Shown one piece after another: positions 1,236-17,960 of a DNA stretch of 64,000 nucleotides. A program made the position numbers and the translations under genes. Under the pieces are notes generated by a model. It ran no database searches. It saw only the letters and a program-made list of their open reading frames with translations, and was not told where the DNA came from. The stretch lies in assembly GCA_965208425.1 (NCBI GenBank), contig OZ242335.1, forward strand, positions 6,151,181-6,215,180. The letters are read 5' to 3'. The DNA is from Candidatus Poribacteria bacterium (GTDB taxonomy: Bacteria > Poribacteria > WGA-4E > PCPOR2b). The stretch's first letter is position 1. The number at the start of each line of letters is the position of its first letter.

Positions 1236-1290
1236 CCCAATAGCAATTTCTTCAGGAGTCAAGTTGTATAATGAGTAACTGGTCAATCTC
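1203..1290 (-). pseudogene. Decayed 3'-terminal fragment of a type IIG RM gene. It encodes ...YSLYNLTPEEIAIGAGAENV with the stop lost. It is about 94% identical at the nucleotide level to the true 3' end of the 12170-15802 gene.
   Basis: 1215-1277 aligns to 12171-12233 with 4 mismatches in 67 nt. The peptide matches the C-terminus ...VYSLYNLTPEEIAIVEGAENV* of the 1210-aa protein. Confidence 0.7.
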
Positions 1291-1702
1291 ACTCCTCGGC
1301 TCCGCCTAAAGCGTCCGGGGATGGCGTTCTTGAAACGAATTTTGACCGTAGTGCGAGTTGAGTCGCTAAAAATAAAATGTCGTCCCGTCCATCTGGCCAC
1401 GGTATAATATCAGCATGTAAAGGATGTATAGAAGTTTCGGGTTCAACCTTTTGCTGGAGAGCGTAAACATCTTTTGCCAAAAGGTCAGCTCGACCGTACA
1501 AGGTCTTACCTCTCGGTTCAGCCACAAACTCATTACCAATTGACCAAATCGTGCTTTCGCTCAGTGTTGAGGTACGGTAAACGGACAATCGTTTGTTTTT
1601 TGGTGGAACAAATGCTTTAGCTTTAACAGTCTGATCCGACGGGCGAAACTCATTTCTACTCAGTATGAAACGACTAATTCTTTCATTTGGATCAATTGTC
1701 AT
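1289..1702 (-). CDS. Hypothetical protein of 137 aa, the distal gene of a two-gene overlapping module.
   Basis: ORF with start-stop overlap (1692-1702) with the upstream 205-aa gene. No recognisable motif. Confidence 0.45.
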   Translation of the reverse strand: MTIDPNERISRFILSRNEFRPSDQTVKAKAFVPPKNKRLSVYRTSTLSESTIWSIGNEFVAEPRGKTLYGRADLLAKDVYALQQKVEPETSIHPLHADIIPWPDGRDDILFLATQLALRSKFVSRTPSPDALGGAEE

Positions 1703-2309
1703 AACGGAGGTAAAGACCTGTAATCATGCCAATAACGGCGATAAGGTGAGGCATTGAAAAGGTTAATATCCCACGCGCTTGATTCCCCGCGCCGAAGATT
1801 CCAGCAAAAACGATGTGCCCATCTCCACCAAAACTCAAGGTAAATATCTTTTGTCCTTCTCGCCATTCGAGGCAGATTTCACCGTTGTCTAAGGGCATAA
1901 TATCCGGTAAGGGCACGAATTTGTTAACCGTTTTCAAAAACCTGTCCACATCTTCGTAAGCCGTTTCTGGGATGGCATCTAGCTCTTGATCAAGCCTCCT
2001 TTCTTCTTCCGCTTCTGCTCGTACTTTTTGGAGTATCTTCTCTATATCCTTTGGGGCGGGGTCATCTAAATCTGTGTGAACAGCACTTCCTTCTATCTGA
2101 GGTGCTTTTGCCAGTGCTTTCCATGCTCGATCGTAGTTTCTTAGTATCTCGTCCAAGGCGATTTCTGGATCACTCGCTGATTCAGGCGCGGCTTCGCAGT
2201 CTTCTTGATTCTGAAGATAGATCAGATAGTCAACGACTGCTTTCAGGTTTTCTGTTGAGAGTTGTTTGATTAATTCAACTGCTTGTTGTTGTAGGTCTAC
2301 TTTTCGCAT
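1692..2309 (-). CDS. Hypothetical protein of 205 aa. It carries a 'VVDYLIYLQ' motif shared with the TPR-TRD protein at 4162-6453.
   Basis: ORF. The N-terminal LKAVVDYLIYLQNQ resembles IGKIVDYLIYLQGQ in the 763-aa protein. The acidic middle and the C-terminal domain are unrecognised. Confidence 0.5.
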   Translation of the reverse strand: MRKVDLQQQAVELIKQLSTENLKAVVDYLIYLQNQEDCEAAPESASDPEIALDEILRNYDRAWKALAKAPQIEGSAVHTDLDDPAPKDIEKILQKVRAEAEEERRLDQELDAIPETAYEDVDRFLKTVNKFVPLPDIMPLDNGEICLEWREGQKIFTLSFGGDGHIVFAGIFGAGNQARGILTFSMPHLIAVIGMITGLYLRYDN

Positions 2310-2337
2310 GGTATTCCCTCTTTTGTTCTGTTTGCCT

Positions 2338-2480
2338 TTATTGTCAGAATCGCAGATTATCGCAGATTAAGGGATTACACGAAGACATTCTATAGACATA
2401 GCACTCCGCTGGAGTGCGGGACTTGGACCTACCACCGTTCTATAGACATGCCGCCCCGCTGGGGCGGAATACATACGGTT
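2338..2480. repeat. C-family repeat arm followed by two D-family units ('ttctatagacat..ccgctgg..' hairpins 'gcactccgctggagtgc' and 'gccccgctggggc').
   Basis: Sequence comparison with 17195-17280, 17810-17900 and 52698-52745. Confidence 0.55.
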
Positions 2481-2565
2481 GTCAAGATAGGCATAGGATT
2501 TGTATATCAGTTCAATAATTTCCAAGACTTACGCACTTCAGATTACGTGACTTATAAAAAAAGAT

Positions 2566-2660
2566 GGCTCATATAAAAAGAAAGTGCAAAGCACGAAAAG
2601 AAACCGAGTTTTCAAGAAAAAACTCGGTTTCTTTGCACTAAATCTTAACATGAGCGAAAA
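2566..2660. mobile_element. A-family MITE-like element. It has terminal 'ggctcatataaaaag' and a core perfect inverted repeat GAAACCGAGTTTT-caagaa-AAAACTCGGTTTC (2600-2631) nested in gtgcaaag/ctttgcac. It lies downstream of the 472-aa ATPase gene and is a likely terminator.
   Basis: Nine related copies in the window (15948, 19459, 39320, 40873, 53295, 55918, 60352, 62994). The 53295-53388 copy shows both TIRs (ggctcatg.../...catatgagcc). Confidence 0.7.
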
Positions 2661-2703
2661 AGATATAATGTGTGACGAATTGTGCGTATGTAGGGAACGC
2701 AGA

Positions 2704-2733
2704 TCTGCGTTCCCTACGAATATGTTCAACTGC
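2704..2733. repeat. Perfect 28-bp palindrome gtagggaacgcagatctgcgttccctac. A second copy is at 43071-43098.
   Basis: Exact match of the two copies. The sequence is self-complementary. Confidence 0.7.
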
Positions 2734-2746
2734 GTAAGTTCTACCC

Positions 2747-4165
2747 TTAATTTGCCGCTAATTCAGCTTCAAGTGTTTCCACCACTTTCATTGCCTCAGA
2801 AAGTTCTTTTTTGACCACAGTTACAGTGCGAGCATGGCTGAGTGGGTTCAGGATAATACTTCGATACAGTTCAATCTCGTTAATGAGGCTCTGCCCTAAA
2901 AAGGGTGTGCCATCCCTTAATGTTCCTGTTTTTATTGGACCCCAGAAATCTTTGCTTGTCAGATCTTTCGGATTTTCGCAGTATCTGACTTGAAGATTCT
3001 TCTTATCACAGAATCTCTTGATAGCCGCTTCAAAGGCGGTGCGAAGATAAATGACGCAGGCTTTGTAGTCGTTGGTGGTGAAATATTCCTTCGCCTTTTC
3101 AAGATATGCCTTATTTTTCGCGTAGATTGGGATCTCGTATTCGTCAGTTTGATCGGAATAGAATTCGGCGTATTCCCACTCTGCATCAGATGTTCGTTGT
3201 CTGACAATCTCATACCACGCCTTATCATACGTCATCAAAAAGATTTGGTAGTCTGAGAAATACTCATCTAGGATATCAAGCACCGGCAGGCGGTTTGACA
3301 TATCTAAGCCAATCAACACATCATCTAGGCCGAGAATCTTCAGGCGGCTTTCTGGCTGAATCAGGATTGATGAAAAGTAGATAGCGATAGCAATCGCCGA
3401 TAATCTCGCCTCGTTTAGGAAGAGGTGATGCCTAGGAATATTTCTGTTGAAGAAATCAACCGTTAAGAGAATTTGTTGATTATCAAGCTTCTTTGTCTTG
3501 TTGTTATATTTAACTCTTGGAAAATCGAAGTTGAGTTTAATGTTGTTTTCAAATTTGCCAAGAATTTCAGATGCCCTCGGCTGCAGTTCTGCTAATCTGT
3601 TTGTTAATTCATCGTTGAAATTCGCTATCTGTCTTTCAAGGATTGCAATTTGACCTGCTGCATTTCGGCGTGGATATGGTGGTTGAATGTCAGCCCAATC
3701 ATCCGCAAGGCTCCGACCCCCAATGTTGATGGTATTTGCCAAAAGCGTCTCAACCAGCAAATTGAACACATTCACAGCGTTACTTTCACGATGGATGTAG
3801 TGCGTCTCTAGAAGGGACTTATAGTCGAGAAAACCCTTTGTTTTTGATGCTTCAATAATCAGTTGGTCATCCGTCTCTCTAACGTTTTCCGACCATTCGT
3901 AGATCTCTTTTCTTGACCGTTCATTAGCACGGAGACCTAGTTTGATATAGCCCGCATCTGTGATAAAGATGTTCCGGTCGTTTTCAAATCTATGGGAAGG
4001 ATCTTCGCCGGATTCCAAGAACAGCTTTAACGCAAAATACAGGGACGATTTTCCGCTCCCATTTTCACCGTAAATTAGTAGGTTCTTCCCTGACTTGCGT
4101 AGGTCAATTCGGTAGGTTCCGTAAAAGGCTCTGAAGTTTTTGATTTCAATCTCAGTAATTCTCAC
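2747..4165 (-). CDS. ABC-type (AAA_15/AAA_21-like) ATPase, abortive-infection type. It is translationally coupled (GTG start overlapping the upstream TGA) to the TPR-TRD gene. The C-terminal ~140 aa may be a PrrC/HEPN-like effector (NPLSH motif).
   Basis: N-terminus ITEIEIKNFRAF, Walker A IYGENGSGKSSLYFAL and Walker B/D-loop RLKILGLDDVLIGLD. The tail ...YRSIILNPLSHA is an inference. Confidence 0.75.
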   Translation of the reverse strand: MRITEIEIKNFRAFYGTYRIDLRKSGKNLLIYGENGSGKSSLYFALKLFLESGEDPSHRFENDRNIFITDAGYIKLGLRANERSRKEIYEWSENVRETDDQLIIEASKTKGFLDYKSLLETHYIHRESNAVNVFNLLVETLLANTINIGGRSLADDWADIQPPYPRRNAAGQIAILERQIANFNDELTNRLAELQPRASEILGKFENNIKLNFDFPRVKYNNKTKKLDNQQILLTVDFFNRNIPRHHLFLNEARLSAIAIAIYFSSILIQPESRLKILGLDDVLIGLDMSNRLPVLDILDEYFSDYQIFLMTYDKAWYEIVRQRTSDAEWEYAEFYSDQTDEYEIPIYAKNKAYLEKAKEYFTTNDYKACVIYLRTAFEAAIKRFCDKKNLQVRYCENPKDLTSKDFWGPIKTGTLRDGTPFLGQSLINEIELYRSIILNPLSHARTVTVVKKELSEAMKVVETLEAELAAN

Positions 4166-6453
4166 GCCTTGTCCTCAATGATACGGATCGGTTTAACGCT
4201 ATTGAGAAAGAAAAGGTTCCGCCGGATCGGATGTGTTCTTTCATACAATCGCTCGAAGATCTCCTGTAACGCGGCCATTTTATCTCCCCGAATTTCTTCA
4301 AGCTGCGGCAACCGTTCATCCAACAACGGTTTGAAGAACTGCTTTTTCCCTTGATGCAGTGCTTCAGGTAGATAGGAGTCATAAACCAGTCCGTCAATGA
4401 TCCGCTCAAAGTACCCGAGCATTATGAAGTCGCGGGCGTGTGCCAAATCCACCCCACTCGTCGTCGGTTGTCCCTGAAGGTAGATGAGGTAATCGACAAT
4501 TTTGCCGATCAGGGATTTCTGCGTTGGTGTAAGATCGGGAATAGGGATTTGTTGCATATAGCGGCTGCGCGCCCGTAGATAATCGCCTGACAACTGGTTT
4601 GAAGTCTGCGAATAGAACCACTCCACAACGCGGGAATTGAGGAGACCGCACAACCACGTTTCCTCGGTCGGGATAAGGTAGCATGTATCCCCACAGTAAA
4701 ATCCTTCTGTATCAACGGCAAAGGTTTGATGGTCGTAGTTATTTGGGCAGATCAACTTCGTTTGCGTAAAGAGTTCAGCGTTGCTTCTGGTGGTTGGCAG
4801 TTCGTACCATTTCTGTTTACCCGCCCTTTTGCTCAAGGCGGATTTATATTTTTCCAAATGTTTTCGGATGGCGGGATAACGGTCTATCTCTATGCGACGG
4901 TAGGCAAAAATTAACCATGAGTCCCCGATAGATCGGGATTTATCAACCGGTTTCGCTACCCCCCAGCGTCTGATGTCTCGTCCATGCAAAAACGGTTTCA
5001 AAATATCGGCGGATGCAGGATGATCGGCAATGAGTAGATCTCGCGTCGCACTATCCACGACAAAGGCTCCGCTCCCGCCGGTCCTGATTCCGAAAGTAGG
5101 GCGCGTTTGAACATATTGCGACAGGGGTGGGCCTGCATCACGAAGCTTTGCAAGTAGATTCAATATATCGGGCGATTCAAAGGGTGTACCATCGGGTCTC
5201 AAGAATTTTTCTGTCTTGGGATAACGGCTCCTTCGCCGTTGTGTTAGCATCGCGGCAATGTCTTCGGGCAATTTAATACGATTTGCCCGCTCATACGCCT
5301 CAATGCTTCTGTAGTCATTATGAAATGCAGCGACGATATCCATTCCCAAGTCTTTGGCAGTAGTCAGATCTGATTTGGCTTCTTCCCACTCTCTCAAGTG
5401 CAACCACGCCCGGCCGCGATTGTTATAGGCGTTGACGAAAACGGGATTTAGGGCTATCGCTTTAGTATAGTCTACGATCGCACGGTCATAATCGCCTTTT
5501 TCACTGTAAGCCACTCCACGATTGTTATAGACGTTGGTATCATTGGGATTGAACTTTATTATTTTATTAAAATCTTCAATGGCGCGGTCAAAATCGCCTT
5601 TGTTGAAATAAGCAGCCCCACGATTGTAGTAGGCACCGACAAGGCGTAACTCTAATTGTATTGCAGTGTTATAGTTTTCAATGGCGCGGTCAAAATCGCC
5701 TTTGTTGAAATAAGCAATCCCGCGGTTGTTATAGGCCTCAGCATAATTAGGTTTGCGTTTTATCGCCGTGCTATGGTCTGCGATAGCACGGTCAAAATCG
5801 CCCTTTTTGTCGTAGGCAACCCCACGATTGGTATACGGCTCGGCATAATCAGGGTTAAGTTCTATCGCTTTGTTGTAGTCTTCAATGGCACGGTCAAAAT
5901 CGTGTTTTTTGTCATAAGCAGCACCACGATTGTTATATGGCTCAGCATAATTAGGTTTGCGTTTTATCGCCGTGTTAAAATCTGAGATAGCACGGTCAAA
6001 ATCGCCTTTTTCACGGTAAGCAATTCCACGATTGTTATATGGCTCGGCATAATCGGGTTTGCGTTTTATCGCCGTGTTATAGTCTGCGATGGCACGGTCA
6101 AAATCGCCCTTTAACCCGTAAACAACGCCACGATTGTTATAGGCTTTGGCATAATTGGGATTGAGTCTTATCGCTGTGTTAAAATCTTCAATGGCACGGT
6201 CAACCTCACCTTTTTTGCCGTAAGCAATCCCACGATTGTTATAGGCTTCGACAAAATCAGGTTTGAGTGCTATCGCTTTGCTAAATTCTGCGATTGCTTT
6301 GTCCTGATCCCCGTTTTCGCTATAGGTGATGCCGCGGGTATTATGTGCCTCGGCATCTTCAGATATCAGGGCTATTGCTTTGGTAGTATCCCTGTTAGGT
6401 ACACTTGTATGAGTGTAATCAAAGCTAGCAGTTGCTAAGTTGGGTACTAGCAT
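4162..6453 (-). CDS. Protein of about ten TPR repeats fused to a type-IIG/TaqI-like C-terminal TRD. It has no nuclease or methyltransferase motifs.
   Basis: Repeated AYNNRGxAYxxKGDFDRAIxDYNTAI units. The C-terminal 330 aa align block-by-block with the C-terminal region of the 1210-aa RM enzyme, sharing the CGLLNSR(V/L)xxFY motif. Confidence 0.75.
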   Translation of the reverse strand: MLVPNLATASFDYTHTSVPNRDTTKAIALISEDAEAHNTRGITYSENGDQDKAIAEFSKAIALKPDFVEAYNNRGIAYGKKGEVDRAIEDFNTAIRLNPNYAKAYNNRGVVYGLKGDFDRAIADYNTAIKRKPDYAEPYNNRGIAYREKGDFDRAISDFNTAIKRKPNYAEPYNNRGAAYDKKHDFDRAIEDYNKAIELNPDYAEPYTNRGVAYDKKGDFDRAIADHSTAIKRKPNYAEAYNNRGIAYFNKGDFDRAIENYNTAIQLELRLVGAYYNRGAAYFNKGDFDRAIEDFNKIIKFNPNDTNVYNNRGVAYSEKGDYDRAIVDYTKAIALNPVFVNAYNNRGRAWLHLREWEEAKSDLTTAKDLGMDIVAAFHNDYRSIEAYERANRIKLPEDIAAMLTQRRRSRYPKTEKFLRPDGTPFESPDILNLLAKLRDAGPPLSQYVQTRPTFGIRTGGSGAFVVDSATRDLLIADHPASADILKPFLHGRDIRRWGVAKPVDKSRSIGDSWLIFAYRRIEIDRYPAIRKHLEKYKSALSKRAGKQKWYELPTTRSNAELFTQTKLICPNNYDHQTFAVDTEGFYCGDTCYLIPTEETWLCGLLNSRVVEWFYSQTSNQLSGDYLRARSRYMQQIPIPDLTPTQKSLIGKIVDYLIYLQGQPTTSGVDLAHARDFIMLGYFERIIDGLVYDSYLPEALHQGKKQFFKPLLDERLPQLEEIRGDKMAALQEIFERLYERTHPIRRNLFFLNSVKPIRIIEDKA

Positions 6454-6613
6454 GACCTCTTCTCCTTCGCGATACGGATTTTTTTTGGTGCCATAATAAT
6501 CTGCTGATGGATAGGTGTCACCTAAATTTCACGGAGTAGACTGGCTGCACATTCTGTTTGATGCTTGGAAACGATCCGGAAGTCGTGAACTTGGGTTAAA
6601 ATGAATATCCTAA

Positions 6614-8278
6614 TTATTCGATTGGCGTGTTTTCTATCTGATCTAGCGTTTCAGAAAGTGGCAGAATACGGCTTTTGAGGGCTTGAGCCAACTGATTGTC
6701 TTTCTGAATTAGGGTGAGAACCATGCGCTCATAATCCTTTTGGTTGCGACATCTAAGGGTTGTTGCGATGATTTCAAAAGTTCGACTTTTACGCAGTGAG
6801 TAACGAGCAATAAGCTGATCTAGCTTACCCTCGTCAACGAGCTTATTGAAGCGATGCAGCTCCTCAGAATAGGGGCTTGGATCAATAGATACACAAATTG
6901 GTTGATTTGGGTTATCCATAATTGACTCCTTGGACGGAATTTGCAATAAGACTCTTTCACGTATTTGGCGTTCACATCGTAGTGAGGCCATTCGTTCAGC
7001 CGTTTTCTCCGCTTCCACTTTCAGGGCTTCAATCGCTTTCTGCTTGGCAGATTTGATGAGTTCGTCGGCATCGTAGCCAAGGGAATCCTCTTGTTGGCGA
7101 GCAACAGCGGCAATAGCGTCTGAGCAATAATAGAGAGCTTCAACCGAGTACACATCCAAGGCAAATACACCCTTTTCGGCGAGTTCCTTCACGTCGTCGT
7201 CCGTCCGGTTATCTCGGTCAATGAGGCCAAAGATCTCTACATGTACAGGGTGGATTCCTTGAGATCCACGCCACCCAAGCACCGCTTTTTGGACAGCCTC
7301 ACAACTCTCTTGCGGAACTACAGAAAGCTCGGGAAAGAGAGTAGTGTAAAGGGAAAAATCTGGACCGTCAGGCTTGCCTTCCACGAATAGAATCTTTTTT
7401 CTGGATCCAAGGATTGCAAGTTTAAGTTCTTCCGGGAGTTCAGCGTTCGGCTCCAGGACATAGGCATCCCAAGCTATACATTGATCGCCGCTCCATCGAC
7501 AAGATCTGAGCATGAGAATTTGTGCCTCTGGGTTAACAACTGGAAGTGCTATCTCATGAGTTGCAACAATAAATATGCAGTCCTCCCTTCTTTTGGCGAA
7601 TAATGCCGAGAGAAATGGTTGGATGATAGATCGGTGGAGATGTCTTTCCGGTTCGTCGATTAGAAGCACCTTTCCGGGTTCAGCCGTGATGACATGCGCT
7701 GCGATGATCATTGCGTTCCGTTCACCATCTGACATTTCTGCAACACTGAAGGGATCTCCCTGGGGATGCCTTGCGAGTAGATTCCGGTCATCGGGATTTT
7801 CGACCGTAACTGTCAGCGTACCGAGAGCAAGCAATTCATTTATCTGATCGAACGGAGAAGGCGATTCAGCAGAAATATCTCGTGCTTTCGTGAGATCTTT
7901 ACTATCTACATGACGAGCAATGGCACGGGCACGGGTGTTTTCTTTGGCAACCAAGTCAAATAGGATAGCAGATAAATCCTGCTGTGCCCTGAGATCTTTC
8001 CAGCGAGCCGCATTGGTTATGTGATAGCCTAGTGTTTGATCCTCATGTTGCTGGCGTTGTTCAGATGTAAAATCGCTGCTTCCTGAATTGAACCATGTTT
8101 GTCTGTGTGCAGCTATCCATTTAACCCGGTTATTCCTATTCTCTGAAACAAACCGCTGTATTAACGCCGATTTGCCAGAACCATTAGGTCCTACGATGAA
8201 CAATGGATTACCAATCTTTAGTGTTAGTTGTATTGGATCGCTCGATATTCTCGGAATTTGCCAGTTTATGTCTCCCAT
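6614..8278 (-). CDS. Fused ABC ATPase + DUF4435/TOPRIM nuclease, of the PARIS AriA-AriB fusion type or an OLD-family enzyme.
   Basis: Walker A FIVGPNGSGKSALIQ, signature-like MSDGERNAMI, Walker B KVLLIDEPERHLH. The C-terminal TOPRIM shows KKILFVEGKPDGPDF and GLIDRDNRTDDD. Confidence 0.7.
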   Translation of the reverse strand: MGDINWQIPRISSDPIQLTLKIGNPLFIVGPNGSGKSALIQRFVSENRNNRVKWIAAHRQTWFNSGSSDFTSEQRQQHEDQTLGYHITNAARWKDLRAQQDLSAILFDLVAKENTRARAIARHVDSKDLTKARDISAESPSPFDQINELLALGTLTVTVENPDDRNLLARHPQGDPFSVAEMSDGERNAMIIAAHVITAEPGKVLLIDEPERHLHRSIIQPFLSALFAKRREDCIFIVATHEIALPVVNPEAQILMLRSCRWSGDQCIAWDAYVLEPNAELPEELKLAILGSRKKILFVEGKPDGPDFSLYTTLFPELSVVPQESCEAVQKAVLGWRGSQGIHPVHVEIFGLIDRDNRTDDDVKELAEKGVFALDVYSVEALYYCSDAIAAVARQQEDSLGYDADELIKSAKQKAIEALKVEAEKTAERMASLRCERQIRERVLLQIPSKESIMDNPNQPICVSIDPSPYSEELHRFNKLVDEGKLDQLIARYSLRKSRTFEIIATTLRCRNQKDYERMVLTLIQKDNQLAQALKSRILPLSETLDQIENTPIE

Positions 8279-8364
8279 GAAAAAATTCTTCCTTTCCCTC
8301 CTGTCCTTCAGTACGGTGTATCAGTAACGAATTTTAGGATTCCCAAGATTTTTGGACGCCCTCC

Positions 8365-8480
8365 TACCTATCCTTTAATCCTGAAAATCCTGATTCTGAC
8401 GGTTTTCCTATTGTCAGAATCGCTGATTATCGCAGATTTAAGGATTACACAGATTCAAAAAAACCCGTCATACCATCATA
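8365..8480. repeat. C-family hairpin element with both arms (aatcctgaaaatcctgattctgac ... gtcagaatcgctgattatcgcagatttaaggattacacagattc).
   Basis: Sequence comparison. Confidence 0.6.
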
Positions 8481-9423
8481 TTGAATACTCATCAAACGCA
8501 TCGTCAAATGAAATTTTGCCTTCACACATTTGCTGCCGGACTTCCAATATCTTCCGTGCCGTAGGTAGTCCCTTCACTACAATTTTTGCCTCAATGTGCA
8601 ACCGTTGAAATAATTGATTAAGTTCGTTTACAATATGCTCCCGCATACATGCCTGCGTCCACCTCAATGTTATATTTCTATAATTCCAGTAGAACTCATT
8701 TCGGTATTCTAGGTTGTCATCCCCGTGATTCCAGCCCCACCGCGTCATAATCCTTGCTACGAAAATTTCTATCTCCCTGACGTAAAGTTGGAAGTTGAAA
8801 TATACAGGCCACTCTTGCATGCTCACTTCCTCCATTAAAAAAGGTGGGGTGGGATCCGGACAACGAGCTAGCTTCCTCAGCATTGCACGGTAACCTTGGT
8901 AACCACCCAACCTCTTCGGTATTGCGATATCCCAGATATCCTCCTCCGGTATCATAATGCAGCACCTTTCCCATACGCTACGGTCAGCCTTGGGAATTAC
9001 CTGGATGTACCTCCCAAAGACATGAAACAACCGCAGGGACGTGAAATTATACAATCGGCGTGCTTCGCCAGTTTCCACATCTCGGATAATCTCATGTACG
9101 ACACGACCATGCGATATAAGATAACGAGCAAGCTGCTCTACTGAATCACTCAACAACTCCTCCAATCTACGCCAGTCATGCCAATCCGTACTAGTGAGTG
9201 ATTCCAGAATTGCAACCGCGTGGGATTTATGTTCCGAATCGCCTTGTATGTCCACAGAGAAATTTGGGGACTGAAGCGATTCACCGCCAATTGGCATTAC
9301 CGCTAGGGAAGCATGTCGTTTGAACACATGTGTATTTGTATTGAAATCAATTTCTTCTCGTAAACTTGGAAAGTACTTGGCAGCGCGTGGTGCTTTCAAT
9401 TGTTCACAGGATTCAGATCTCAT
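8476..9423 (-). CDS. Hypothetical protein of 315 aa, distal gene of a three-gene operon (ATGA overlap with the upstream gene).
   Basis: ORF with operon context. No motif recognised. Confidence 0.5.
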   Translation of the reverse strand: MRSESCEQLKAPRAAKYFPSLREEIDFNTNTHVFKRHASLAVMPIGGESLQSPNFSVDIQGDSEHKSHAVAILESLTSTDWHDWRRLEELLSDSVEQLARYLISHGRVVHEIIRDVETGEARRLYNFTSLRLFHVFGRYIQVIPKADRSVWERCCIMIPEEDIWDIAIPKRLGGYQGYRAMLRKLARCPDPTPPFLMEEVSMQEWPVYFNFQLYVREIEIFVARIMTRWGWNHGDDNLEYRNEFYWNYRNITLRWTQACMREHIVNELNQLFQRLHIEAKIVVKGLPTARKILEVRQQMCEGKISFDDAFDEYSI

Positions 9424-11090
9424 GATGATTCGTCCATCGTATCGCGACTTTCCTCCCTTCTAATTGCTTCTTCGATATCCCCATGCCGCAGCAGCCTACC
9501 GAAATCCAAGTTTTTCCCATCTTCTCGCTGGCAAACATATTTCGCGATAAAAATGTCAATCCCATCGTAAAATAAAAAGTCGTCGTTTCTTGCGAATACT
9601 CTCACCAACGGACTTTTGTGTATCACAACAGTCTCGGTACCACCAAGGATGCCACCATAATCGAGGGCAATCTCTTTACGTTCCACATCCCCCAGTCGTC
9701 GTTGTATCATCTGCATCCATCTGGTTCTATTTGTGCTTCGGTGTGCTATCTCGAACGCTGATTCGGTGAGCGAGACAGCTTCAGCGAGAAACTTAAGCAG
9801 CGGAAGCTGCGACTGAGCTGAATCCTGGTCGAGATAATTGTCCCACTCCTTCACTATCGGTTCCTTCAGGCATACTGTATCGTGATAGTCAGAAAGTAGG
9901 TATGCGTAACCGCTAACTTCCATTAGGTCCAAAAGAGGCGCAACAGCGATTTTTAGATCTCTTTCAATTTGCCATACCGACATGTTTTCTTTAGGTTTCA
10001 GTTTTTCAAACTGTAGTGAGCTGCCATAAAAGTAACTTTTGAAAAGTGCGTCAACCATATCGCAATCATTTTCACACATAGCAGTAAGTAACGCTTCTCC
10101 AACGTTGTGCAGAAATTGTCCCGCAAAGTCTGGATACGATTCTGGTTTTGAGATCAAAGATAGTAGGATATTCTCAGTGGACATGAGCTTTAGAAGTTTT
10201 TTTTCTCGCTGCTTCCCTTTTTCTATTAACTTATCAATGTCCAAGCTTGGCCAGAGAAGATTTTCTATTCTTCGATCAGAATTGAGATCGCTCCAAAGAT
10301 GGTCCAGAGTATTTGTGTGATGATCCAGTTTGTTCCAATACTCTAACTCTGTTGATATCATTACCGCTGCCAACCATGGATGCTTTGAAGATGTTGCGAT
10401 CTCTATCCAATGCTTATAGAGATCGCCTGCTTTTTCATAAAAAAAACTCATTGCAGTCAGAAGGTTCTTTGCCTCCTGTTGTGCTATCAGCTCTTGAATA
10501 TACCAAGAAGGACTGATGACGCACCCTTCAACTCTTTCCTCGAATTCAAGCCTTGAGCGCAGCCATTCAAGTTGTGTCAGAATATGTACAGCAAATCCGG
10601 CTTTGTAGATTGATTGCTCTGACTTCCATGTAATACGATGGATACGCTGAAGTATCTCAGCCCGTCCATAAGATTCAATAGCACTAATATAGGCCAGAAG
10701 AACATTAATCGGCATCATTGCCAACTGTTCACAAATTTGCATGTGTTCCAGGGGTTCTTCTGCAACAACCTTATCCTTCTTGACAAAAATAAGAGCTTCA
10801 CAATGGGAAAAAATATCGCGTATCAGGTCGAATGCAAATTCCACCTGCTGCTCTTTTACAAGTTGTTGGATATAAGCGTCAAGATCGCCGAGGAGTTTGT
10901 CAGCTAAAGCATAACGTTTGTTTCTTATGTTGATTTCCAGACAACCTTTCACGATTGGTAATATTGCAGCTTCAATCCATCTTGGGTCGCTTACGAGTTT
11001 TGGCCGCAGTCCGGTAGCAGTCTCGTGTGCCAGAGATGTTTCTGTATCACCTGATACCAATCTGGATGCATGACTCGCTTCTCGTACCAT
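9420..11090 (-). CDS. Hypothetical protein of 556 aa, predicted all-alpha, middle gene of the three-gene operon. Its annotated start overlaps the upstream gene by about 100 bp, so the true start may be internal (for example the GTG for ...IVKGCLEIN).
   Basis: ORF. No motif recognised. Confidence 0.5.
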   Translation of the reverse strand: MVREASHASRLVSGDTETSLAHETATGLRPKLVSDPRWIEAAILPIVKGCLEINIRNKRYALADKLLGDLDAYIQQLVKEQQVEFAFDLIRDIFSHCEALIFVKKDKVVAEEPLEHMQICEQLAMMPINVLLAYISAIESYGRAEILQRIHRITWKSEQSIYKAGFAVHILTQLEWLRSRLEFEERVEGCVISPSWYIQELIAQQEAKNLLTAMSFFYEKAGDLYKHWIEIATSSKHPWLAAVMISTELEYWNKLDHHTNTLDHLWSDLNSDRRIENLLWPSLDIDKLIEKGKQREKKLLKLMSTENILLSLISKPESYPDFAGQFLHNVGEALLTAMCENDCDMVDALFKSYFYGSSLQFEKLKPKENMSVWQIERDLKIAVAPLLDLMEVSGYAYLLSDYHDTVCLKEPIVKEWDNYLDQDSAQSQLPLLKFLAEAVSLTESAFEIAHRSTNRTRWMQMIQRRLGDVERKEIALDYGGILGGTETVVIHKSPLVRVFARNDDFLFYDGIDIFIAKYVCQREDGKNLDFGRLLRHGDIEEAIRREESRDTMDESS

Positions 11091-11959
11091 AGGCTATCGG
11101 TCGGAATCAATTTTTTTCCTGTTTCATAGTACATGAGAAATAAGAGGAGACGTTTGCACAGATTGGCAAATGGCTGGCCATTCAGATGCAGTTCTTTTTC
11201 CGCTATTTCAGACACAGCAGTAAGCGTTTCTATGGCCCTTTGAGCAACTCTATAAGCATGATTTTGGAATGATTGATCAGACCAGCGATAACCACCAGCT
11301 TGCATTTGTAGATAATACCGTCGTAACTGTTTGAACAAGCGATCAGAGAGGGTCGTGGGATCAGACAGATAAAACGCGCGTGCTCCCAATCGAACGAATC
11401 CAATAATTGTCAATCCTGCCCCTAGTAGAAGTAGTGGTATTGCCAGTATGATTGGTTCGCGACCTAGGGCGTGGAAAATGAGTAAGCATACACCGAAATA
11501 GGTAAATACAGCGATGCAGCCCATGTAAGCGTTACCGACTTGTTCTTTAGCTAGTAAGCTTCGGATGTTATTGGGGACCTTCGCATAGATAGCACCACCT
11601 AGAACGCTAATGGCAGCATAATAAAGACCGATGAATAAACCTCCGGCACCTACGACGGTAGCGAGCAGAGTTCCGTAGTGGTTCTCTTTGGGGATGGTAA
11701 AGCCTATTTCTGTGAACAAGGAAACGAAATATGAGTTAGTAATTTGGAGACCGAAGACTGTGAGGGGCACCAAGACCAGTTCGACTAGCGTGGACTTCAG
11801 TAGAGACAATAGAAATTTTGTTGTTGTACTCTCCTCCCGCATCCAGTGTTTCATTCCGAACAGCATTCGATAACTGACGAATACGAGATGTGAAAGAGCT
11901 CTTTTGGTCCTCCAGAAGAGCCGGGTTTGGGCGAAAAAAAGAAACAAGGAATTAAGCAT
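10991..11959 (-). CDS. Integral membrane protein (about 4 TM helices) with a ~130-aa cytoplasmic C-terminal domain. First gene of the three-gene operon.
   Basis: Hydrophobic segments LLATVVGAGGLFIGLYYAAISVLGGAIY, YMGCIAVFTYFGVCLLIFHAL and IILAIPLLLLGAGLTIIGFVRL. Confidence 0.5.
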   Translation of the reverse strand: MLNSLFLFFAQTRLFWRTKRALSHLVFVSYRMLFGMKHWMREESTTTKFLLSLLKSTLVELVLVPLTVFGLQITNSYFVSLFTEIGFTIPKENHYGTLLATVVGAGGLFIGLYYAAISVLGGAIYAKVPNNIRSLLAKEQVGNAYMGCIAVFTYFGVCLLIFHALGREPIILAIPLLLLGAGLTIIGFVRLGARAFYLSDPTTLSDRLFKQLRRYYLQMQAGGYRWSDQSFQNHAYRVAQRAIETLTAVSEIAEKELHLNGQPFANLCKRLLLFLMYYETGKKLIPTDSLWYEKRVMHPDWYQVIQKHLWHTRLLPDCGQNS

Positions 11960-12127
11960 TGTTGGTCACTATAGGAGTTAGATTCTGTTGACATTTGGGG
12001 ACAAAACAGATGGTAAAAAACAGGCAATAAGTATACCCCACAAATGTTAAGAATTCCACATAAATATTAAGTATTGCAAATGGCACGAACAAGTGGATAT
12101 GGGGATCCCCTTTACAAAATCGTTCCA

Positions 12128-12185
12128 AAGGACTTATCCTGTTAATCCTTCAATCCTGAAAATCCTGATTCAGACATTTTCCGCC
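12128..12185. repeat. C-family repeat arm (aatcctgaaaatcctgattcagac) abutting the stop of the RM gene.
   Basis: Sequence comparison. Confidence 0.55.
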
Positions 12186-15100
12186 CCCTCCACAATAGCG
12201 ATTTCTTCAGGAGTCAAGTTGTATAATGAGTATACTTGTTGGTTGATTTTCTCTTCAAGAGCATCTGTGTCTCCATCATAGTTTAATTTTTTAATACATA
12301 GAATTTGCTCTACTAGGGTTACGATTCGATCGTGCTTTACTTTTCCACCTGAACTAGCGAAGTCTAGAGAAGGAAGTGGCAATTGTTCAATGTACTGTTT
12401 ACTCGCAGCAAAATAGCCACTCCTGAAATTCGTTGAAACTTGCTTTAGATAAAAATCAAGCAAACGGGAATTTAATAAGCCGCATAAAAAAGCCAAACTT
12501 CCAAACGAGCGACGGATTGTGATTCCATAGCCACCTGTAGTTACATTGATAAAATAATAGTTATCATCATAGTCTAAATACGCCGATAATTCTGTAATCA
12601 TATAAGGTATCATTAATTTTGGCTGCTCCCAAAGCCCAAGATTTTGAGTCCGACCAAAACGATACCATTGTTCATCTGTAAATTTACCCTTTTCGCGTGC
12701 TTCCAGAACTTTTCTGTTACGATTTAGATATGCCCAAGCTAATGGATAATTCTGTTGCATTTCATTTTCAGAGAACAGTCTTGCAGAGTGATTTTTAATT
12801 TCATAGGGAAAAAGGACAAAAGCTGACGGTCTCGCTCTATATCGATGAACGTGACCACTACGAATAACAGGTTTTAGCACTTCTAACTCAACCGGAACCC
12901 ACTCCATGAGAGATTCAGAATATATATCAATTATGTCCTCTTCTTGATTAATCTCATATTTTTTGAAGAGAAGAACCTTGTCTGTACTTGTAATTAATCC
13001 CTGATAAATCCTATTTGACACATCCGCTAATTTTAAGGGCATTTTACGTAATTTATCAAAAACCCTTCCCTCTTTTCCCACCACAAAATTCCACGCTGCA
13101 CTCGTGACCTCTGTAGCCGAAACCATTCCTTCAACAGTCTCCCCTCTGTTACGCCACGCGAGTATATCGTTCACTTTGATGAAGCGAAAATCATTACTAC
13201 CACCTTTATTCAAAAAGAGCAAACAAGTATAGTTAGTTGCCCCCTCGAAAATCTGCTCATCTCCAAAGTGAACGATACTTTTCAGATATTTCCCTCTTGC
13301 GATCAACCTTCGCAAACCTTCGCCATATTTTGCATTGAAAAACTTATGTGGCAAAATATACGCTAATTGTCCATGACCATTTAGTAAAGCCAACCCTTTT
13401 TCCGCGAAGATCACATAAACATCATAGCTGCTAACTGCCGATTTATAATATTCATTATACAATATTTTCAGTCCCGGGTCCAAACTTTGCACTCGAATAT
13501 ACGGCGGGTTCCCAATTACTACATCAAACCCCTCCGCCACACCAAACATCCACTCCGGATCAAACCACTCCGCGCTTGAGTTCTGGTCGTAGGGGTCCCA
13601 AGCGGCGACTTTATTCGCATCATCGGCGGGCATACCGATATGCTTTAATTCCGTTGCTAACGCTTGACGCAATTTCTTGTCTTCTCGTTTACACGCCAGT
13701 TTCTGTGGGCGGGTTGTGGCATGGAAATGCCGCTCACGATTTTCGCCCAATTCTACCTCCAGAGCTTTCGCTTGGGGACTGGTCAGAGTTCGCTCTCCCT
13801 CAAGGCCGATGAGTGTGTTCGCTGCGATAAACCGCGTCTCCAGATTCGGCAGCGGCTTAATCCCAAAGTTATCGGCATTGTTATCCGGCTCCTGCTCAAT
13901 GGCGAGGGAGATGAAGAAGCGGAGTTTAGCGATTTGGCAGGCGATGGATTGAATGTCCAAGCCGAAGATGCTATTTTGGATGAGGTATAACTTCCGTCCG
14001 AAATCCCCCGAATAGTTTTCAAAGATTCTGCTAATTTCCTTGAGCTCTTCGTCGCGGGTCTGTCTATCCTTTGTATCAAACGCAGCCGCCGCCCGCTGGA
14101 TGGCACGTTCTTTCTGTAGCTGCTCCCACCGGGCGTTATCGGGGTCAAGCCGCCGCAGTGCGAGGGTCAATTTGTGCAGCACCCCCATCGGAAACGCACC
14201 CGACCCCACCGCCGGATCTAGTATTTTGAGTTCTGAAATTGCCCGCACCACCGCGTCGGCTTCGCGGCTGTCGAAAAATTCGCTCGCATCGTCAAACGCC
14301 TTTGCGTAGTCGAACAGATAGCGCAGCCGCTCGTCCGTTGACGACACCTGCGCTGCGAGTGCTGCCACCAGTGCCTCCTCCACCATATAGTCCACGATGG
14401 GGCGCGGGGTGTAGTAGGAGCCGGTCTGTTTCCGTGCTGTTGCGCCGGTTTCGGGGTTATAGGCGGCGAGTAGGTTTTCAAACACCTTGCCGAGTAGTTC
14501 CGGATCTAACGCGACCTCTTGCTCTATCGGTGTGTTCTCCTCAACGGTGAACTTGTAGCCTTTCAACAGAGGAATCAGACCGCGATCGACATCAAAGAAT
14601 AGATGGTTGGGAAGGCTTAACTTTTTGTAGTGTTCATCGGAAAAGCAGTCAATCCGATAGCCGCCGTCGCGTGTCGCTTCCTCGCTATCAAGGCAGTCAA
14701 ACAAGCCGCCGTTGATAAATGGTGTTTTTTCAAATAGCGTCAACAGTTTATCGGGGTCGGTTACCTGATCTTTGTAGCGATACAGTGAGAAATTGCGATG
14801 CCCTGTGTTTCCGCCTTTGGTGAACCGACGCTTCTCTATCTCGGTGTTCAGTGTCGCAAAAAACAGGTTCTGTAGCACGGCGCGATAGTAGGAATCGCCG
14901 GTGTCCTGATCGTAATCCTTCAGCAATGGGGCGATTTGTGTCTCACTGAACAGTGCATCGGCGATCAGTCCCTTCTCCTTGATGAACCAGACGAACAGCA
15001 GGCGCGTGATTAGGCGAATGACGTGCTCCTCCGGCTTCAAAGCGCGCTTTTCATTTGTTGGAAACTTCCCCTCAGCAACCGCCCATTCAAACCAGGTGAA

Positions 15101-15802
15101 CAACTCCCGGTAGAATTTCCTGTTGAGTTCTTCGGTGTCCAGTGTCTTTGCCCAGGCACGATGCAGCTCGACAAAATTGTGGATACCGTGCGTTTGGTTC
15201 AACGGTTCAAGGGCAAGATCGAAGAGGATGTCGATGTGGGCGCGGTGGGGGTCCTTGAAATCAATATCCTTGATGAGGGTTACTTTTTCGAGGACATCGC
15301 GGGATGGGTCGGAGGTGTGCAAACGGCGATCGATAATTGACAACGTGAGCGTCTCGCCGTGCTGAAAGAGCAGCATCGCGGGCATTATGAACAATTTGTT
15401 GATTTCGCGGGTGATTTGTGACAGTTGGGTGCGGTTGTAATTGCTGCCTTCCAACCGGAGCGCGAAGAAAAGGTAGGATTGGATGATGGTGTTATCCACC
15501 TGCGTCTGGCTGGGATCGAACAGCCATCCGGTTGCATCTGTGAGCGTCAGGTCATCGCCGCTGAGTTGGAAAAGCAGGTCAATGGAGCTCCACTCCCCTG
15601 TCAATGCCCTATCGTGATTTAGTTTGCCTTGCGAATCGTACGCGGCGATAAACGCCTCGGCGGTGTTCGATTCAAGGGCTAGGGTCCTTTCGCTCTGATA
15701 GCCGAGTGTGTTGAGCAGGTTTCGGGCGTTTTGGACGAGGCCCCCCGTGGTGAAGCGGTTTAGGGCTTTCGTGATGGCGGCTTTGTGTTGTGGGTCGTTC
15801 AT
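12170..15802 (-). CDS. Type IIG restriction-modification enzyme (Eco57I/MmeI-like fused endonuclease, gamma-class N6-adenine methyltransferase and TRD).
   Basis: 1210 aa. Motif I LDPAVGSGAFP, motif IV VVIGNPPYIRVQ, C-terminal TRD with CGLLNSRLLDFY and terminal ...LYNLTPEEIAIVEGAENV. No BREX partner genes nearby. Confidence 0.85.
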   Translation of the reverse strand: MNDPQHKAAITKALNRFTTGGLVQNARNLLNTLGYQSERTLALESNTAEAFIAAYDSQGKLNHDRALTGEWSSIDLLFQLSGDDLTLTDATGWLFDPSQTQVDNTIIQSYLFFALRLEGSNYNRTQLSQITREINKLFIMPAMLLFQHGETLTLSIIDRRLHTSDPSRDVLEKVTLIKDIDFKDPHRAHIDILFDLALEPLNQTHGIHNFVELHRAWAKTLDTEELNRKFYRELFTWFEWAVAEGKFPTNEKRALKPEEHVIRLITRLLFVWFIKEKGLIADALFSETQIAPLLKDYDQDTGDSYYRAVLQNLFFATLNTEIEKRRFTKGGNTGHRNFSLYRYKDQVTDPDKLLTLFEKTPFINGGLFDCLDSEEATRDGGYRIDCFSDEHYKKLSLPNHLFFDVDRGLIPLLKGYKFTVEENTPIEQEVALDPELLGKVFENLLAAYNPETGATARKQTGSYYTPRPIVDYMVEEALVAALAAQVSSTDERLRYLFDYAKAFDDASEFFDSREADAVVRAISELKILDPAVGSGAFPMGVLHKLTLALRRLDPDNARWEQLQKERAIQRAAAAFDTKDRQTRDEELKEISRIFENYSGDFGRKLYLIQNSIFGLDIQSIACQIAKLRFFISLAIEQEPDNNADNFGIKPLPNLETRFIAANTLIGLEGERTLTSPQAKALEVELGENRERHFHATTRPQKLACKREDKKLRQALATELKHIGMPADDANKVAAWDPYDQNSSAEWFDPEWMFGVAEGFDVVIGNPPYIRVQSLDPGLKILYNEYYKSAVSSYDVYVIFAEKGLALLNGHGQLAYILPHKFFNAKYGEGLRRLIARGKYLKSIVHFGDEQIFEGATNYTCLLFLNKGGSNDFRFIKVNDILAWRNRGETVEGMVSATEVTSAAWNFVVGKEGRVFDKLRKMPLKLADVSNRIYQGLITSTDKVLLFKKYEINQEEDIIDIYSESLMEWVPVELEVLKPVIRSGHVHRYRARPSAFVLFPYEIKNHSARLFSENEMQQNYPLAWAYLNRNRKVLEAREKGKFTDEQWYRFGRTQNLGLWEQPKLMIPYMITELSAYLDYDDNYYFINVTTGGYGITIRRSFGSLAFLCGLLNSRLLDFYLKQVSTNFRSGYFAASKQYIEQLPLPSLDFASSGGKVKHDRIVTLVEQILCIKKLNYDGDTDALEEKINQQVYSLYNLTPEEIAIVEGAENV

Positions 15803-15837: not shown

Positions 15838-15950
15838 ATTATGGTAGATTTTAGGATTAATGAGACACTCCAAATCGGCGCAGTTGCAAACAGCGCCTAC
15901 CAAACATGGGGAGCGAAAGTGTTTATTTATTTTTTCAATTCACTATAAGA
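15838..15950. mobile_element. B-family MITE copy (inverted orientation: ...ttaggattaatgagacactccaaatcgg ... gcgaaagtgtttatttattttttcaattcactataag).
   Basis: Ten copies share the termini 'ctatagtggatcttagaattaatgagacactccaaa' and its reverse complement. Confidence 0.7.
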
Positions 15951-16050
15951 AATCGTGCAACAGAAACCAAGTTTTCAAGTCCCGATTCTCGGGATGATCG
16001 ACTAGTCGGCAAAAAACTCGGTTTCTATAACTGTTTCATGATTGCACGAT
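15948..16050. mobile_element. A-family MITE copy with an inserted cccgattctcggg sub-hairpin. It overlaps the last ~8 codons and the stop of the 16025-17170 gene.
   Basis: Core gaaaccaagtttt...aaaactcggtttc flanked by cgtgcaa/ttgcacg. Confidence 0.65.
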
Positions 16051-17194: not shown

Positions 17195-17280
17195 ACACCT
17201 GTCGCCCCGCTGGGGCTTGGCAGAAGTTTTATCGCCCTTCTATAAACATATCGCCCCGCTGGGGCTAAATACATGCTTCA
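17195..17280. repeat. D-family pair of hairpin units (gtcgccccgctggggc, about 47 bp apart).
   Basis: Sequence comparison. Confidence 0.55.
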
Positions 17281-17390
17281 CGTCCTCTATCCTGAAAATC
17301 CTTAAATTCTGAGTATCCTGATTCAGACAATAATCCGTGTCATCTGTGTCATCTGCTTAATCCGCAATTCAGACAAAAAAAGTAATTATG
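17281..17390. repeat. C-family repeat copy.
   Basis: tcctgaaaatcc...atcctgattcagacaa...aatccgcaattcagacaa. Confidence 0.5.
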
Positions 17391-17809
17391 CACACCCCCA
17401 TCTAAGTAGCAGCACCTTTTCGACTGGAACTTCGCTCAACTTGCCAGCACGAGCATGGAGAACGTAGGAGTTATGGTACATCGTTTTGAGGGTATCGACG
17501 GAGGAGATATCCACGCCACCGAGGCGATCAGTTTTGAGGTTTGGTTCAGCCATGATGGGCATCGGTGTTTCTCGCTTTCTGCGTGTATCATCGGGGCTAG
17601 GAAGCCCCTCCCACAATCGATAAAAATATATCACGCACTATGAACAGCGTCAAGGTTAAATCTACCATTGGCGGGAAAGGATGGTGCACTACCCGAAGGA
17701 GCGTCAGTGTTTCGTACTTGACCGCCTTCCAGGTATGTGATACAGTGATTTGGAATCTGCAGCCTCGTTGAAACGGTTGGTTCATTCATTCTTCTTACGT
17801 TCCACCCTT

Positions 17810-17960
17810 CGGATACACATGTCGCCCCGCTGGGGCTTTAGGATATTTGTTTATCCGTGTCCTATAAACATGTCGCCCCTCTGGGGCTAAATGAACCGCT
17901 GAACCAATGATTTTCACGTATCACGTTATTAACAGCTGCAAACTAGTGCTCAGTCAGATA
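17810..17960. repeat. D-family pair plus a ~95-bp extension that recurs inverted at 52640-52745.
   Basis: Sequence at 17850-17955 is about 90% identical to the reverse complement of 52640-52735. Confidence 0.6.

Follow-up and report, generated by a model that had tools for sequence, protein, structure and literature searches.

The gene at 6614..8278 on the minus strand of a 64,000-nucleotide (nt) stretch of Candidatus Poribacteria DNA (contig OZ242335.1 of assembly GCA_965208425.1; the whole stretch is called the window here) likely encodes a PARIS-type defence protein of the fused AriAB class, a single chain in which an AAA_21-type ABC ATPase is joined to a DUF4435 Toprim nuclease. The interval contains exactly one open reading frame (ORF), which starts with ATG, is intact and encodes 554 amino acids (aa) plus a stop codon. 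The ORF list and translation, the match to a PADLOC AriAB model and the more than 2400 homologues returned by a word-indexed search, mostly of ~550 aa, all indicate that the gene is complete. An identical protein is on record at NCBI/ENA, from a 6.8-Mb contig.

Identification of a fused AriAB gene

An earlier note, made from the letters of the DNA, had proposed that one polypeptide here combines an ABC ATPase with a DUF4435/Toprim nuclease, of either the PARIS AriA-AriB fusion type or the OLD family. We indeed found both domains in the one 554-aa ORF. Pfam profiles matched the whole protein with AAA_21 at 6.4e-15 (56.4 bits, cut-off 27), ABC_tran at 3.5e-9 and DUF4435 at 3.1e-7 (30.8 bits, cut-off 27), and AAA_15 scored 27.1 bits, which is under its own cut-off. 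The note had named a C-terminal half that fails to match DUF4435/Toprim profiles as the observation that would speak against its proposal. When the C-terminal 277 aa (278-554) were searched alone, DUF4435 matched at 33.1 bits, aligning aa 17-119 of the half with positions 2-102 of the 238-position profile, and nothing else significant was seen among the Pfam matches listed to E<=10. The motifs that the note had picked out are all present at the places it gave for them, far beyond what chance would produce.

The best defence-profile match supports the PARIS fusion type. The fused AriAB model PDLC02982 is by far the top model of PADLOC-DB (6.4e-57, 191.4 bits), aligning end to end with aa 21-545 against profile positions 43-567 of 570, and it is followed by the other fused model and then by the AriA models and the AriB model. 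The 554-aa protein and the 570-position profile share both Pfam domains and their order, and NCBIfam holds no specific model for the fused protein. The published detection rule for PARIS asks for AAA_15 at 32 bits or more or AAA_21 at 27 bits or more, together with DUF4435 at 27 bits or more (Rousset 2022, PMC9122126), and single-protein fusions are detected with a profile built from AAA_21+DUF4435 proteins at a threshold of 20 bits (PMC9122126). With the fused-profile part of this rule scored with the PADLOC models, the values found were 56.4 bits for AAA_21, 30.8 (whole protein) or 33.1 (C-terminal half) for DUF4435 and 191.4 for the fused profile, all of which lie on the PARIS side. PDLC02982 was also the best PADLOC model in 7/7 relatives tested, from plasmids, prophages and metagenome-assembled genomes (MAGs).

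Fused PARIS forms have been acknowledged before (PMC11464382, PMC10568477), and there is no definitional difference between our gene and single-gene PARIS as represented by the DefenseFinder AAA_21+DUF4435 'merge' class and by PADLOC PDLC02982, which likewise is detected as a lone gene. The gene thus belongs to a class already recognised by standard defence profiles, and the call, although correct, is an ordinary one: it supplies one more instance of single-gene PARIS as labelled by DefenseFinder and PADLOC, adding annotation and not biology.

Domain architecture and conserved motifs

An AlphaFold2 model built on a 70-sequence alignment (predicted local distance difference test score, pLDDT, 92.9; predicted template modelling score, pTM, 0.85) shows an ABC head, a helical insertion, a four-strand beta-alpha core of Toprim-like form and an all-helical C-terminal domain. 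The sequences of this alignment are 30-81% identical to the query, and their invariant columns are motif residues: G30, G33, G35, K36, S183, D184, D208, P210, H241, E300, G301, D307, G351, D354, D356 and E380. All features described in this section lie, like the gene, on the minus strand.

The ABC ATPase half (aa 1-277, 7448..8278) is identified by the AAA_21 and ABC_tran matches, by an hhalign match to AriA described below and by Foldseek, whose matches to this half are Rad50, SMC heads, PtuA, GajA and the Thermus scotoductus OLD protein (TsOLD); it also matches PADLOC AbiLi at 9e-11. The Walker A motif GPNGSGKS (aa 30-37, 8168..8191) contains the invariant glycines 30, 33 and 35 and K36, and the Q-loop AHRQ occupies aa 57-60. 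Between the Q-loop and the signature lies a helical insertion of ~120 aa (aa 60-180, 7739..8101), with predicted helices at 72-86, 98-125, 129-138 and 142-152. Then follow the ABC signature-like MSDGER (aa 182-187, 7718..7735), with its invariant serine and aspartate, the Walker B motif and D-loop LLIDEPERHLH (aa 205-215, 7634..7666), in which E209 and E211 are at least 90% conserved beside the invariant D208 and P210, and the H-loop ATHE (aa 239-242, 7553..7564) with the invariant H241. The invariant K36 and the conserved D208-E209 are the counterparts of the catalytic AriA residues K39 (Walker A) and E393 (Walker B).

The DUF4435 Toprim core (aa 278-400, 7079..7447) consists of four beta-alpha units, with modelled strands at 295-300, 319-323, 348-353 and 371-373; apart from the Pfam match it is hit by the PADLOC AriB model at 4.5e-8. 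Its acidic residues sit in three motifs: the Toprim glutamate motif LFVEGKPD (aa 297-304, 7367..7390), in which E300 and G301 are invariant, the DxD motif DRDNRTDDD (aa 354-362, 7193..7219), with invariant D354 and D356 and preceded by the invariant G351, and SVEALYY (7127..7147) with the invariant E380; D307 is invariant as well. The C-terminal all-helical domain (aa 401-554, 6617..7078) is modelled at pLDDT ~90 and lies outside the Pfam DUF4435 match in this protein, and a separate model of aa 278-554 reached pLDDT 90.2. This C-terminal half forms one family within the fused class, since profiles of the window's clade and of a Clostridia-type clade aligned by hhalign at E 1.4e-40 over 232 columns, helical domain included.

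Distance from the E. coli AriA and AriB proteins

The system from which the mechanism of PARIS is known is the two-gene system of E. coli B185 (structures 8ux9 and 8v46). Like it, the window's protein combines an ABC ATPase, a DUF4435 Toprim domain and, behind the latter, a helical domain; unlike it, it is one polypeptide and has no separate, releasable AriB. The earlier note had suggested an alignment to AriA and AriB as a check, and we took the sequences of B185 AriA (first 399 aa), B185 AriB and O42 AriB from the supplement of PMC9122126. The AriA part of the comparison was positive. The family profile aligned with B185 AriA at 87% probability (E 3.7e-6), over 76 columns only, which pair aa 140-215 with AriA 323-399 and bring SDGER opposite SSGER and LIDEPERHLH opposite LIDEPEISLH. 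The AriB part was not: against a 25-sequence alignment of the AriB family, hhalign gave E 0.054 and a probability of 1%, which is not significant. In that same non-significant alignment, E300, D354, D356 and E380 stand opposite AriB E26, D88, E90 and E122 (the last within HSLENYF), the published metal-binding residues of AriB (PMC11464382). AriB D30 is paired with D304, a non-conserved position of the fused family, and the invariant D307 lies three residues further on, although this placement again comes from an alignment that is not significant.

Several observations weigh against the PARIS-type reading, the non-significant AriB alignment being one of them. In AriA the aligned segment begins ~285 aa after the Walker A lysine (K39), whereas in the fused protein it begins ~105 aa after it, so that ~180 aa of the AriA insert are missing; the insert from Walker A to signature measures ~145 aa in the fused protein versus ~330 aa in AriA. 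In E. coli this insert forms a coiled-coil interface through which the hexamer is assembled and the trigger Ocr is bound (PMC10802264, PMC11464382), and Ocr binding maps to this interface and to the pores (PMC11464382, PMC10802264). Two HMMER profiles of the C-terminal half found no PDB chain at E<=10, AriB included, and this negative is a real one because AriB is present in the PDB copy searched, as 8ux9_A and 8v46_D. Searches against the solved PARIS structures with phmmer (whole protein and C-terminal half) and with hmmsearch (three family profiles) returned generic ABC matches or nothing, and the nearest PDB sequence matches of the fused protein are transporter ATPases at E ~0.005. Foldseek with the C-terminal model found no PDB or BFVD structure under E 0.1; an RloB-like protein, the nearest in BFVD, came in at a non-significant E 0.12. 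In the papers searched we found no experimental test of any fused PARIS member.

The fused protein is, by sequence comparison, very distant from the AriA and AriB that have been studied, and its link to AriB rests on a common Pfam family and on motif register and not on direct similarity. The fused class is defined by domain co-occurrence alone, and a caution follows for the label: PARIS is here the name of a domain combination, borne by a protein that can barely be aligned with the AriA and AriB that gave the mechanism.

Family size and genomic settings of relatives

Fused proteins of this kind form a large family. An exhaustive HMMER scan of 1.84 billion cluster representatives retrieved 2563, 1812 and 726 proteins at E<=1e-3, 1e-10 and 1e-30, respectively, the 726 being clusters at 50% identity, and nearly all of the 150 best matches are 530-560 aa long and aligned end to end. 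A profile scan of genome contigs was dominated by generic Walker motifs and returned five distant loci, and a metagenome scan with the neighbouring cytochrome b found relatives at <=54% identity only.

The relatives that are 27-38% identical typically stand alone on mobile elements. Among IMG/VR contigs, one homologue (L012, 7428-9059, 31% identity) lies between a P2 gpA replication gene and a portal gene, and others adjoin a capsid gene (L010), lie between a ligase and an integrase gene (L011), adjoin an integrase gene (L014) or adjoin a large terminase gene (L017). Among plasmids, 64 records carried a match, 47 of them covering at least 80% of the query, and they include E. coli and Salmonella plasmids of 5.3-6.5 kb. 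The Rop-type, mobilisable plasmid NZ_CP041680.1 (L024, 5330 bp) encodes a 559-aa homologue at 3508-5187, the largest of its four annotated genes, with 31% identity over 99% coverage and a PADLOC AriAB match of 2.6e-43. This E. coli plasmid homologue (WP_053888063.1) occurs in 19/5426 complete E. coli genomes, and 24 of its 26 places are on plasmids. RefSeq names the plasmid homologues only 'AAA family ATPase' or 'ATP-binding cassette domain-containing protein'. In a Hyphococcus MAG (L003) the homologue stands among housekeeping genes. In a Clostridia MAG (L002, 1663-11007) it has an N6_N4 methylase gene on one side and a ResIII helicase-nuclease gene on the other (type III-like Mod/Res), followed by SIR2 and HerA genes, and matches PADLOC AriAB at 3.9e-164. 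Since the gene occurs alone in prophages, on small plasmids and within a restriction-modification (RM) operon, the fused protein probably acts as an autonomous single-gene defence.

Proposed mechanism

In the window, the gene sits among genes for a type IIG enzyme, an SMC-like ATPase and TPR (tetratricopeptide repeat) effectors. The data show an intact ABC ATPase, a complete set of Toprim acidic residues, domains of constant length and order, and locations typical of defence genes; the mechanism that follows is inferred. Two ATPase heads would pair around ATP, as they do in Rad50, SMC, AriA and OLD proteins, and the Toprim and helical half may be held inactive in cis against the ATPase; the high pTM of the AlphaFold2 model is consistent with a fixed packing of the domains. 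An infection cue would then alter the ATPase cycle and allow the Toprim domains to engage nucleic acid, which might be tRNA, as for AriB, or DNA, as for OLD, and cleavage could arrest the growth of the infected cell (abortive infection). AriB cleaves tRNA for Lys, Thr and Asn in the anticodon stem (PMC12409363). In E. coli PARIS, an anti-restriction protein (Ocr or Ptr1/2) is the trigger, and activation consists of the trigger-induced release and dimerisation of AriB. That step is closed to a protein with covalently linked halves, in which activation would have to be a rearrangement within the complex. Triggering by Ocr, tRNA cleavage and the guarding of the type IIG enzyme are all extrapolations, the first of them from the two-gene system of E. 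coli.

Alternative explanations

The OLD family, which the earlier note had kept beside PARIS, offers the alternative that the protein works like Class 1 OLD (P2 Old, TsOLD), as a stand-alone ATPase-Toprim homodimer that degrades DNA and has no tRNase activity, so that the PARIS label would mislead. The build of the protein speaks for it: in Class 1 OLD proteins, too, a single chain begins with an ABC ATPase that carries an inserted helical domain and ends with a Toprim, and their stand-alone gene contexts (PMC10568477) resemble the lone genes seen among our relatives, one of which (L012) lies in a P2-like prophage. The top full-length Foldseek match in PDB is TsOLD (6p74, E 1.1e-7, 534 columns), ahead of PtuA, Rad50, SMC heads and GajA in that order, and a 2023 review of OLD proteins treats the distinction between fused AriAB and Class 1 OLD as an open question (PMC10568477). 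However, the TsOLD match is structurally weak, with a template modelling score of 0.30-0.32 and a root-mean-square deviation of 16 Å, and its E value is no better than that of ATPase-only matches such as Rad50. No OLD-type Toprim or DUF2813 profile matched the whole protein at E<=0.01 or the C-terminal half at E<=10; unlike in Class 1 OLD, the Toprim matches DUF4435, its sole C-terminal Pfam match, and PADLOC places AriAB far above GajA, which covers just aa 177-242. We therefore consider the OLD-like alternative unlikely. The question is easy to put to experiment, since the family is large and has a native representative on a 5-kb E. coli plasmid; a mechanistically uncharacterised class, far from the E. 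coli model, thereby comes with a tractable member. That the protein might instead be a housekeeping ABC ATPase of transport, translation or repair, with an inert C-terminal extension and no part in defence, is scarcely credible. Some relatives are named 'ABC-type cobalamin/Fe3+-siderophores transport system ATPase', and the closest PDB sequence matches are the transporter ATPases mentioned above, but no permease or binding-protein genes lie near the fused gene, there is one ABC domain only, and the best NCBIfam scores for transporter and ABC-F models are 20-37 bits where the cut-offs demand 130-800, so that a transporter ATPase was rejected for want of partner genes and for scores far under the cut-offs. 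Moreover, the acidic residues of the C-terminal half are invariant, and the contexts are mobile elements and defence islands.

Two further explanations, which look to the neighbouring genes, were weighed against the reading of the gene as an autonomous fused AriAB system. According to the earlier note, the gene stood next to a type IIG RM gene, with one system guarding the other, and by analogy with E. coli PARIS, which senses Ocr (PMC9122126, PMC11464382), the fused protein might serve as a dedicated guard of that enzyme and respond to anti-restriction proteins that mimic DNA, such as Ocr. The position did not hold up. The adjoining gene (4162..6453) encodes no RM enzyme, having only a TaqI_C-like recognition domain fused to TPRs, and was rejected as a type IIG enzyme; the true type IIG gene (12170-15802, minus strand; Eco57I, N6_Mtase and TaqI_C domains; PADLOC REase_MTase_IIG 1.4e-90) lies 3.9 kb upstream with three unrelated ORFs between. 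We compared the window with eight further loci that encode 63-81% identical proteins (L006-L009 and L020-L023; with the window, the nine loci of the clade). An Eco57I-type enzyme, 39-74% identical to the window's in the other loci, is encoded within 10 kb upstream in five of the nine (window, L006, L007, L021 and L022), and the L002 relative between Mod and Res genes would also suit a guard. But the adjacency is not conserved: the fused gene follows cytochrome b, with no RM gene, in three loci (L008, L009 and L020) and follows TIR-TPR genes in L023, and no RM gene was among the features seen around prophage and plasmid relatives. In addition, ~180 aa of the AriA insert, whose coiled-coil interface binds Ocr in E. 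coli, are missing from the fused protein. The RM neighbourhood also has a simple positional explanation, because the 10.9-kb block around the fused gene is bracketed by copies of the 3' end of the type IIG gene. These form a 70-nt direct repeat (94% identity) at 1209-1281 and 12164-12236, the second copy being the gene's own last 21 codons (...YSLYNLTPEEIAIVEGAENV*) and the first, in which the stop is lost, following the 137-aa ORF. The arrangement recurs in L007 (4542-4572 and 13874-13911). It looks as though a stretch of cargo had entered at the 3' end of the RM gene by insertion or recombination, which points to a hotspot for insertions rather than to functional coupling. The recurrent RM neighbourhoods, L002 included, fit ordinary defence-island clustering and show no guard relationship, and a dedicated guard is, in our judgement, very improbable. 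The other explanation holds that in this clade the fused gene forms a two-gene module with the downstream TPR gene, whose product, with its swappable C-terminus, would supply the sensing or targeting done by the AriA insert in E. coli. A TPR protein of one repeat type is encoded directly downstream on the same strand in 9/9 clade loci, with an N-terminus common to six of them; the pair has been preserved both behind the type IIG gene and behind cytochrome b, which are different chromosomal settings; the 160-nt spacer between the genes is 78% conserved; no second TPR protein of this type occurs in the 64-kb window; and the ATPase lacks most of the AriA insert. Against this, no TPR protein was found among the scanned neighbours of relatives at <=38% identity, the lone gene of the 5.3-kb plasmid included, which makes a functional link a minority hypothesis. 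The TPR gene comes with a conserved promoter-like element of its own, TPR-effector genes (TIR-, FRG- and PDDEXK-TPR) are common in these islands generally, and the nine loci come from related genomes in which synteny may be plain inheritance. A TPR partnership of this kind is accordingly quite unlikely. We give equally little credence to the broader idea that the fused AriAB class is a mechanistic kind of its own, cis-autoinhibited and never releasing its nuclease, which in this clade would be paired with an adjoining polymorphic TPR protein (ending in a TaqI_C-like module, a 176-aa module or no end module) that replaces the sensing insert of AriA.

Other ATPase-Toprim systems share parts of the design of the fused AriAB protein. 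Gabija GajA (Class 2 OLD) likewise joins an ABC ATPase and a Toprim in one chain (Foldseek 8x5i, E 8.9e-6); Gabija was rejected as an identity of the gene, there being no adjoining UvrD/PcrA-like GajB helicase gene and a GajA profile match confined to the short segment given above. AbiL (AbiLi/AbiLii) and RloAB are also ABC ATPase and Toprim pairs, but they are two-gene systems, and the fused protein matched no AbiLii or RloB profile. Like RloAB, the L002 relative lies inside an RM operon (PMC10802264).

The TPR gene and its variable end module

The downstream gene (4162..6453, minus strand) encodes a 763-aa TPR protein with nine repeats and a TaqI_C-like C-terminal module (Pfam TaqI_C, 3.3e-14). 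This module is a distant paralogue of the TaqI_C region of the type IIG enzyme (29% identity over 129 aa). In the 160-nt spacer that separates the TPR gene from the fused gene (6454..6613, minus strand; 78% mean column identity over five loci), a promoter scan predicted TTGACA-17-TATTAT at 6493-6521, and a GAAGGAG ribosome-binding site is also present. Judged from the sequence, this promoter-like element and the putative ribosome-binding site belong to the downstream TPR gene.

The TPR genes of related loci lie at 11796-14471 in L006, 11901-13448 in L007, 11819-13510 and 14467-17337 in L008, and 11832-13085 in L009, and some loci are without an end module. The TaqI_C-like end module, of 363 aa, is found in the window and in L006, and an 86% identical copy ends a TIR-TPR protein of L008; N-termini of TPR proteins elsewhere carry TIR, FRG or PDDEXK_3 domains. 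In L007 the TPR protein ends instead with a 176-aa module that is 81% identical to the product of window ORF 1692-2309, and the product of the next gene, of 137 aa, is 87% identical to its window counterpart. In the window, these two small overlapping ORFs (1692-2309, 205 aa, and 1289-1702, 137 aa, both on the minus strand) had no family match, and together (1289-2309) they look like a detached module and its partner whose place the TaqI_C-like module and an ATPase gene have taken. The latter (2747-4165, minus strand) encodes a 472-aa ATPase with SMC_N, AAA_15 and AAA_23 matches, and its start overlaps the stop of the TPR-TaqI_C gene. The PADLOC mad3 model covers it nearly in full length at 2.8e-9, and LmuB, AriA and PbeC match at its N-terminus only; the gene is absent from all related loci compared.

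Further features of the island

Between purN (432-1082) and a gene of the beta-lactamase family (16025-17170), every gene (1289 to 15802) lies on the minus strand; in the direction of transcription, the type IIG gene comes first, then three ORFs, the fused gene, the TPR gene, the SMC-type ATPase gene and the two small ORFs. The three ORFs between the type IIG gene and the fused gene, which encode 322 aa (10991-11959), 556 aa (9420-11090) and 315 aa (8476-9423), are also on the minus strand, and the last two overlap by 4 nt. None of them matched a Pfam, NCBIfam or PADLOC model or had a homologue in any related locus compared, and they may be an uncharacterised defence cassette. Scans of the whole 64 kb with Rfam and for tRNA genes found no RNA family and no tRNA gene.

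The type IIG enzyme is 74% identical to that of L007 (1143-4568) over aa 5-870, and the alignment stops before the TaqI_C region (aa 1037-1143), a divergence that would fit a swapped DNA-recognition domain and a changed specificity. In L021 (2915-7777) and L022 (2110-6621), transposase genes of insertion sequences interrupt or flank the Eco57I-type gene that lies upstream of the fused gene; L021 also has, after a DDE transposase gene, a separate TaqI_C fragment of 226 aa. L006, L021 and L022 carry a gene for a ~1100-aa protein with PLD and SNF2 helicase domains before the Eco57I-type gene, which the window lacks.

The 5' intergenic region of the fused gene (8279..8475, minus strand) is partly conserved among five aligned loci. 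It contains the repeats D6 (8360-8401) and D5 (8409-8450) and a GGA-rich ribosome-binding stretch, and a promoter scan of its minus strand found no sigma-70-type match. The 42-nt D5 element (GTGTAATCCCTTAATCTGCGATAATCTGCGATTCTGACAATA in gene orientation, AATCTGCGAT in tandem) occurs in the window at 1127-1168, 2339-2380 and 8409-8450, being confined to this island within the 64 kb, in L006 at 9831-9874, 15860-15906, 16233-16271 and 19733-19778, and in L007 at 5215-5259 and 14064-14109. It lies 30-130 nt upstream of purN, of the 205-aa ORF, of the fused gene and of FRG genes in L006, always in the same orientation, and may be a common promoter or operator, or a cassette boundary. Other dispersed intergenic repeats are GC-rich hairpin units, GCCCCGCTGGGGC, at window positions 2380-2474 and 17195-17896, and a 25-nt element, AATCCTGAAAATCCTGATTCAGACA, found four times in the window (8377, 12152, 17305 and 39185), one of which is outside the island.

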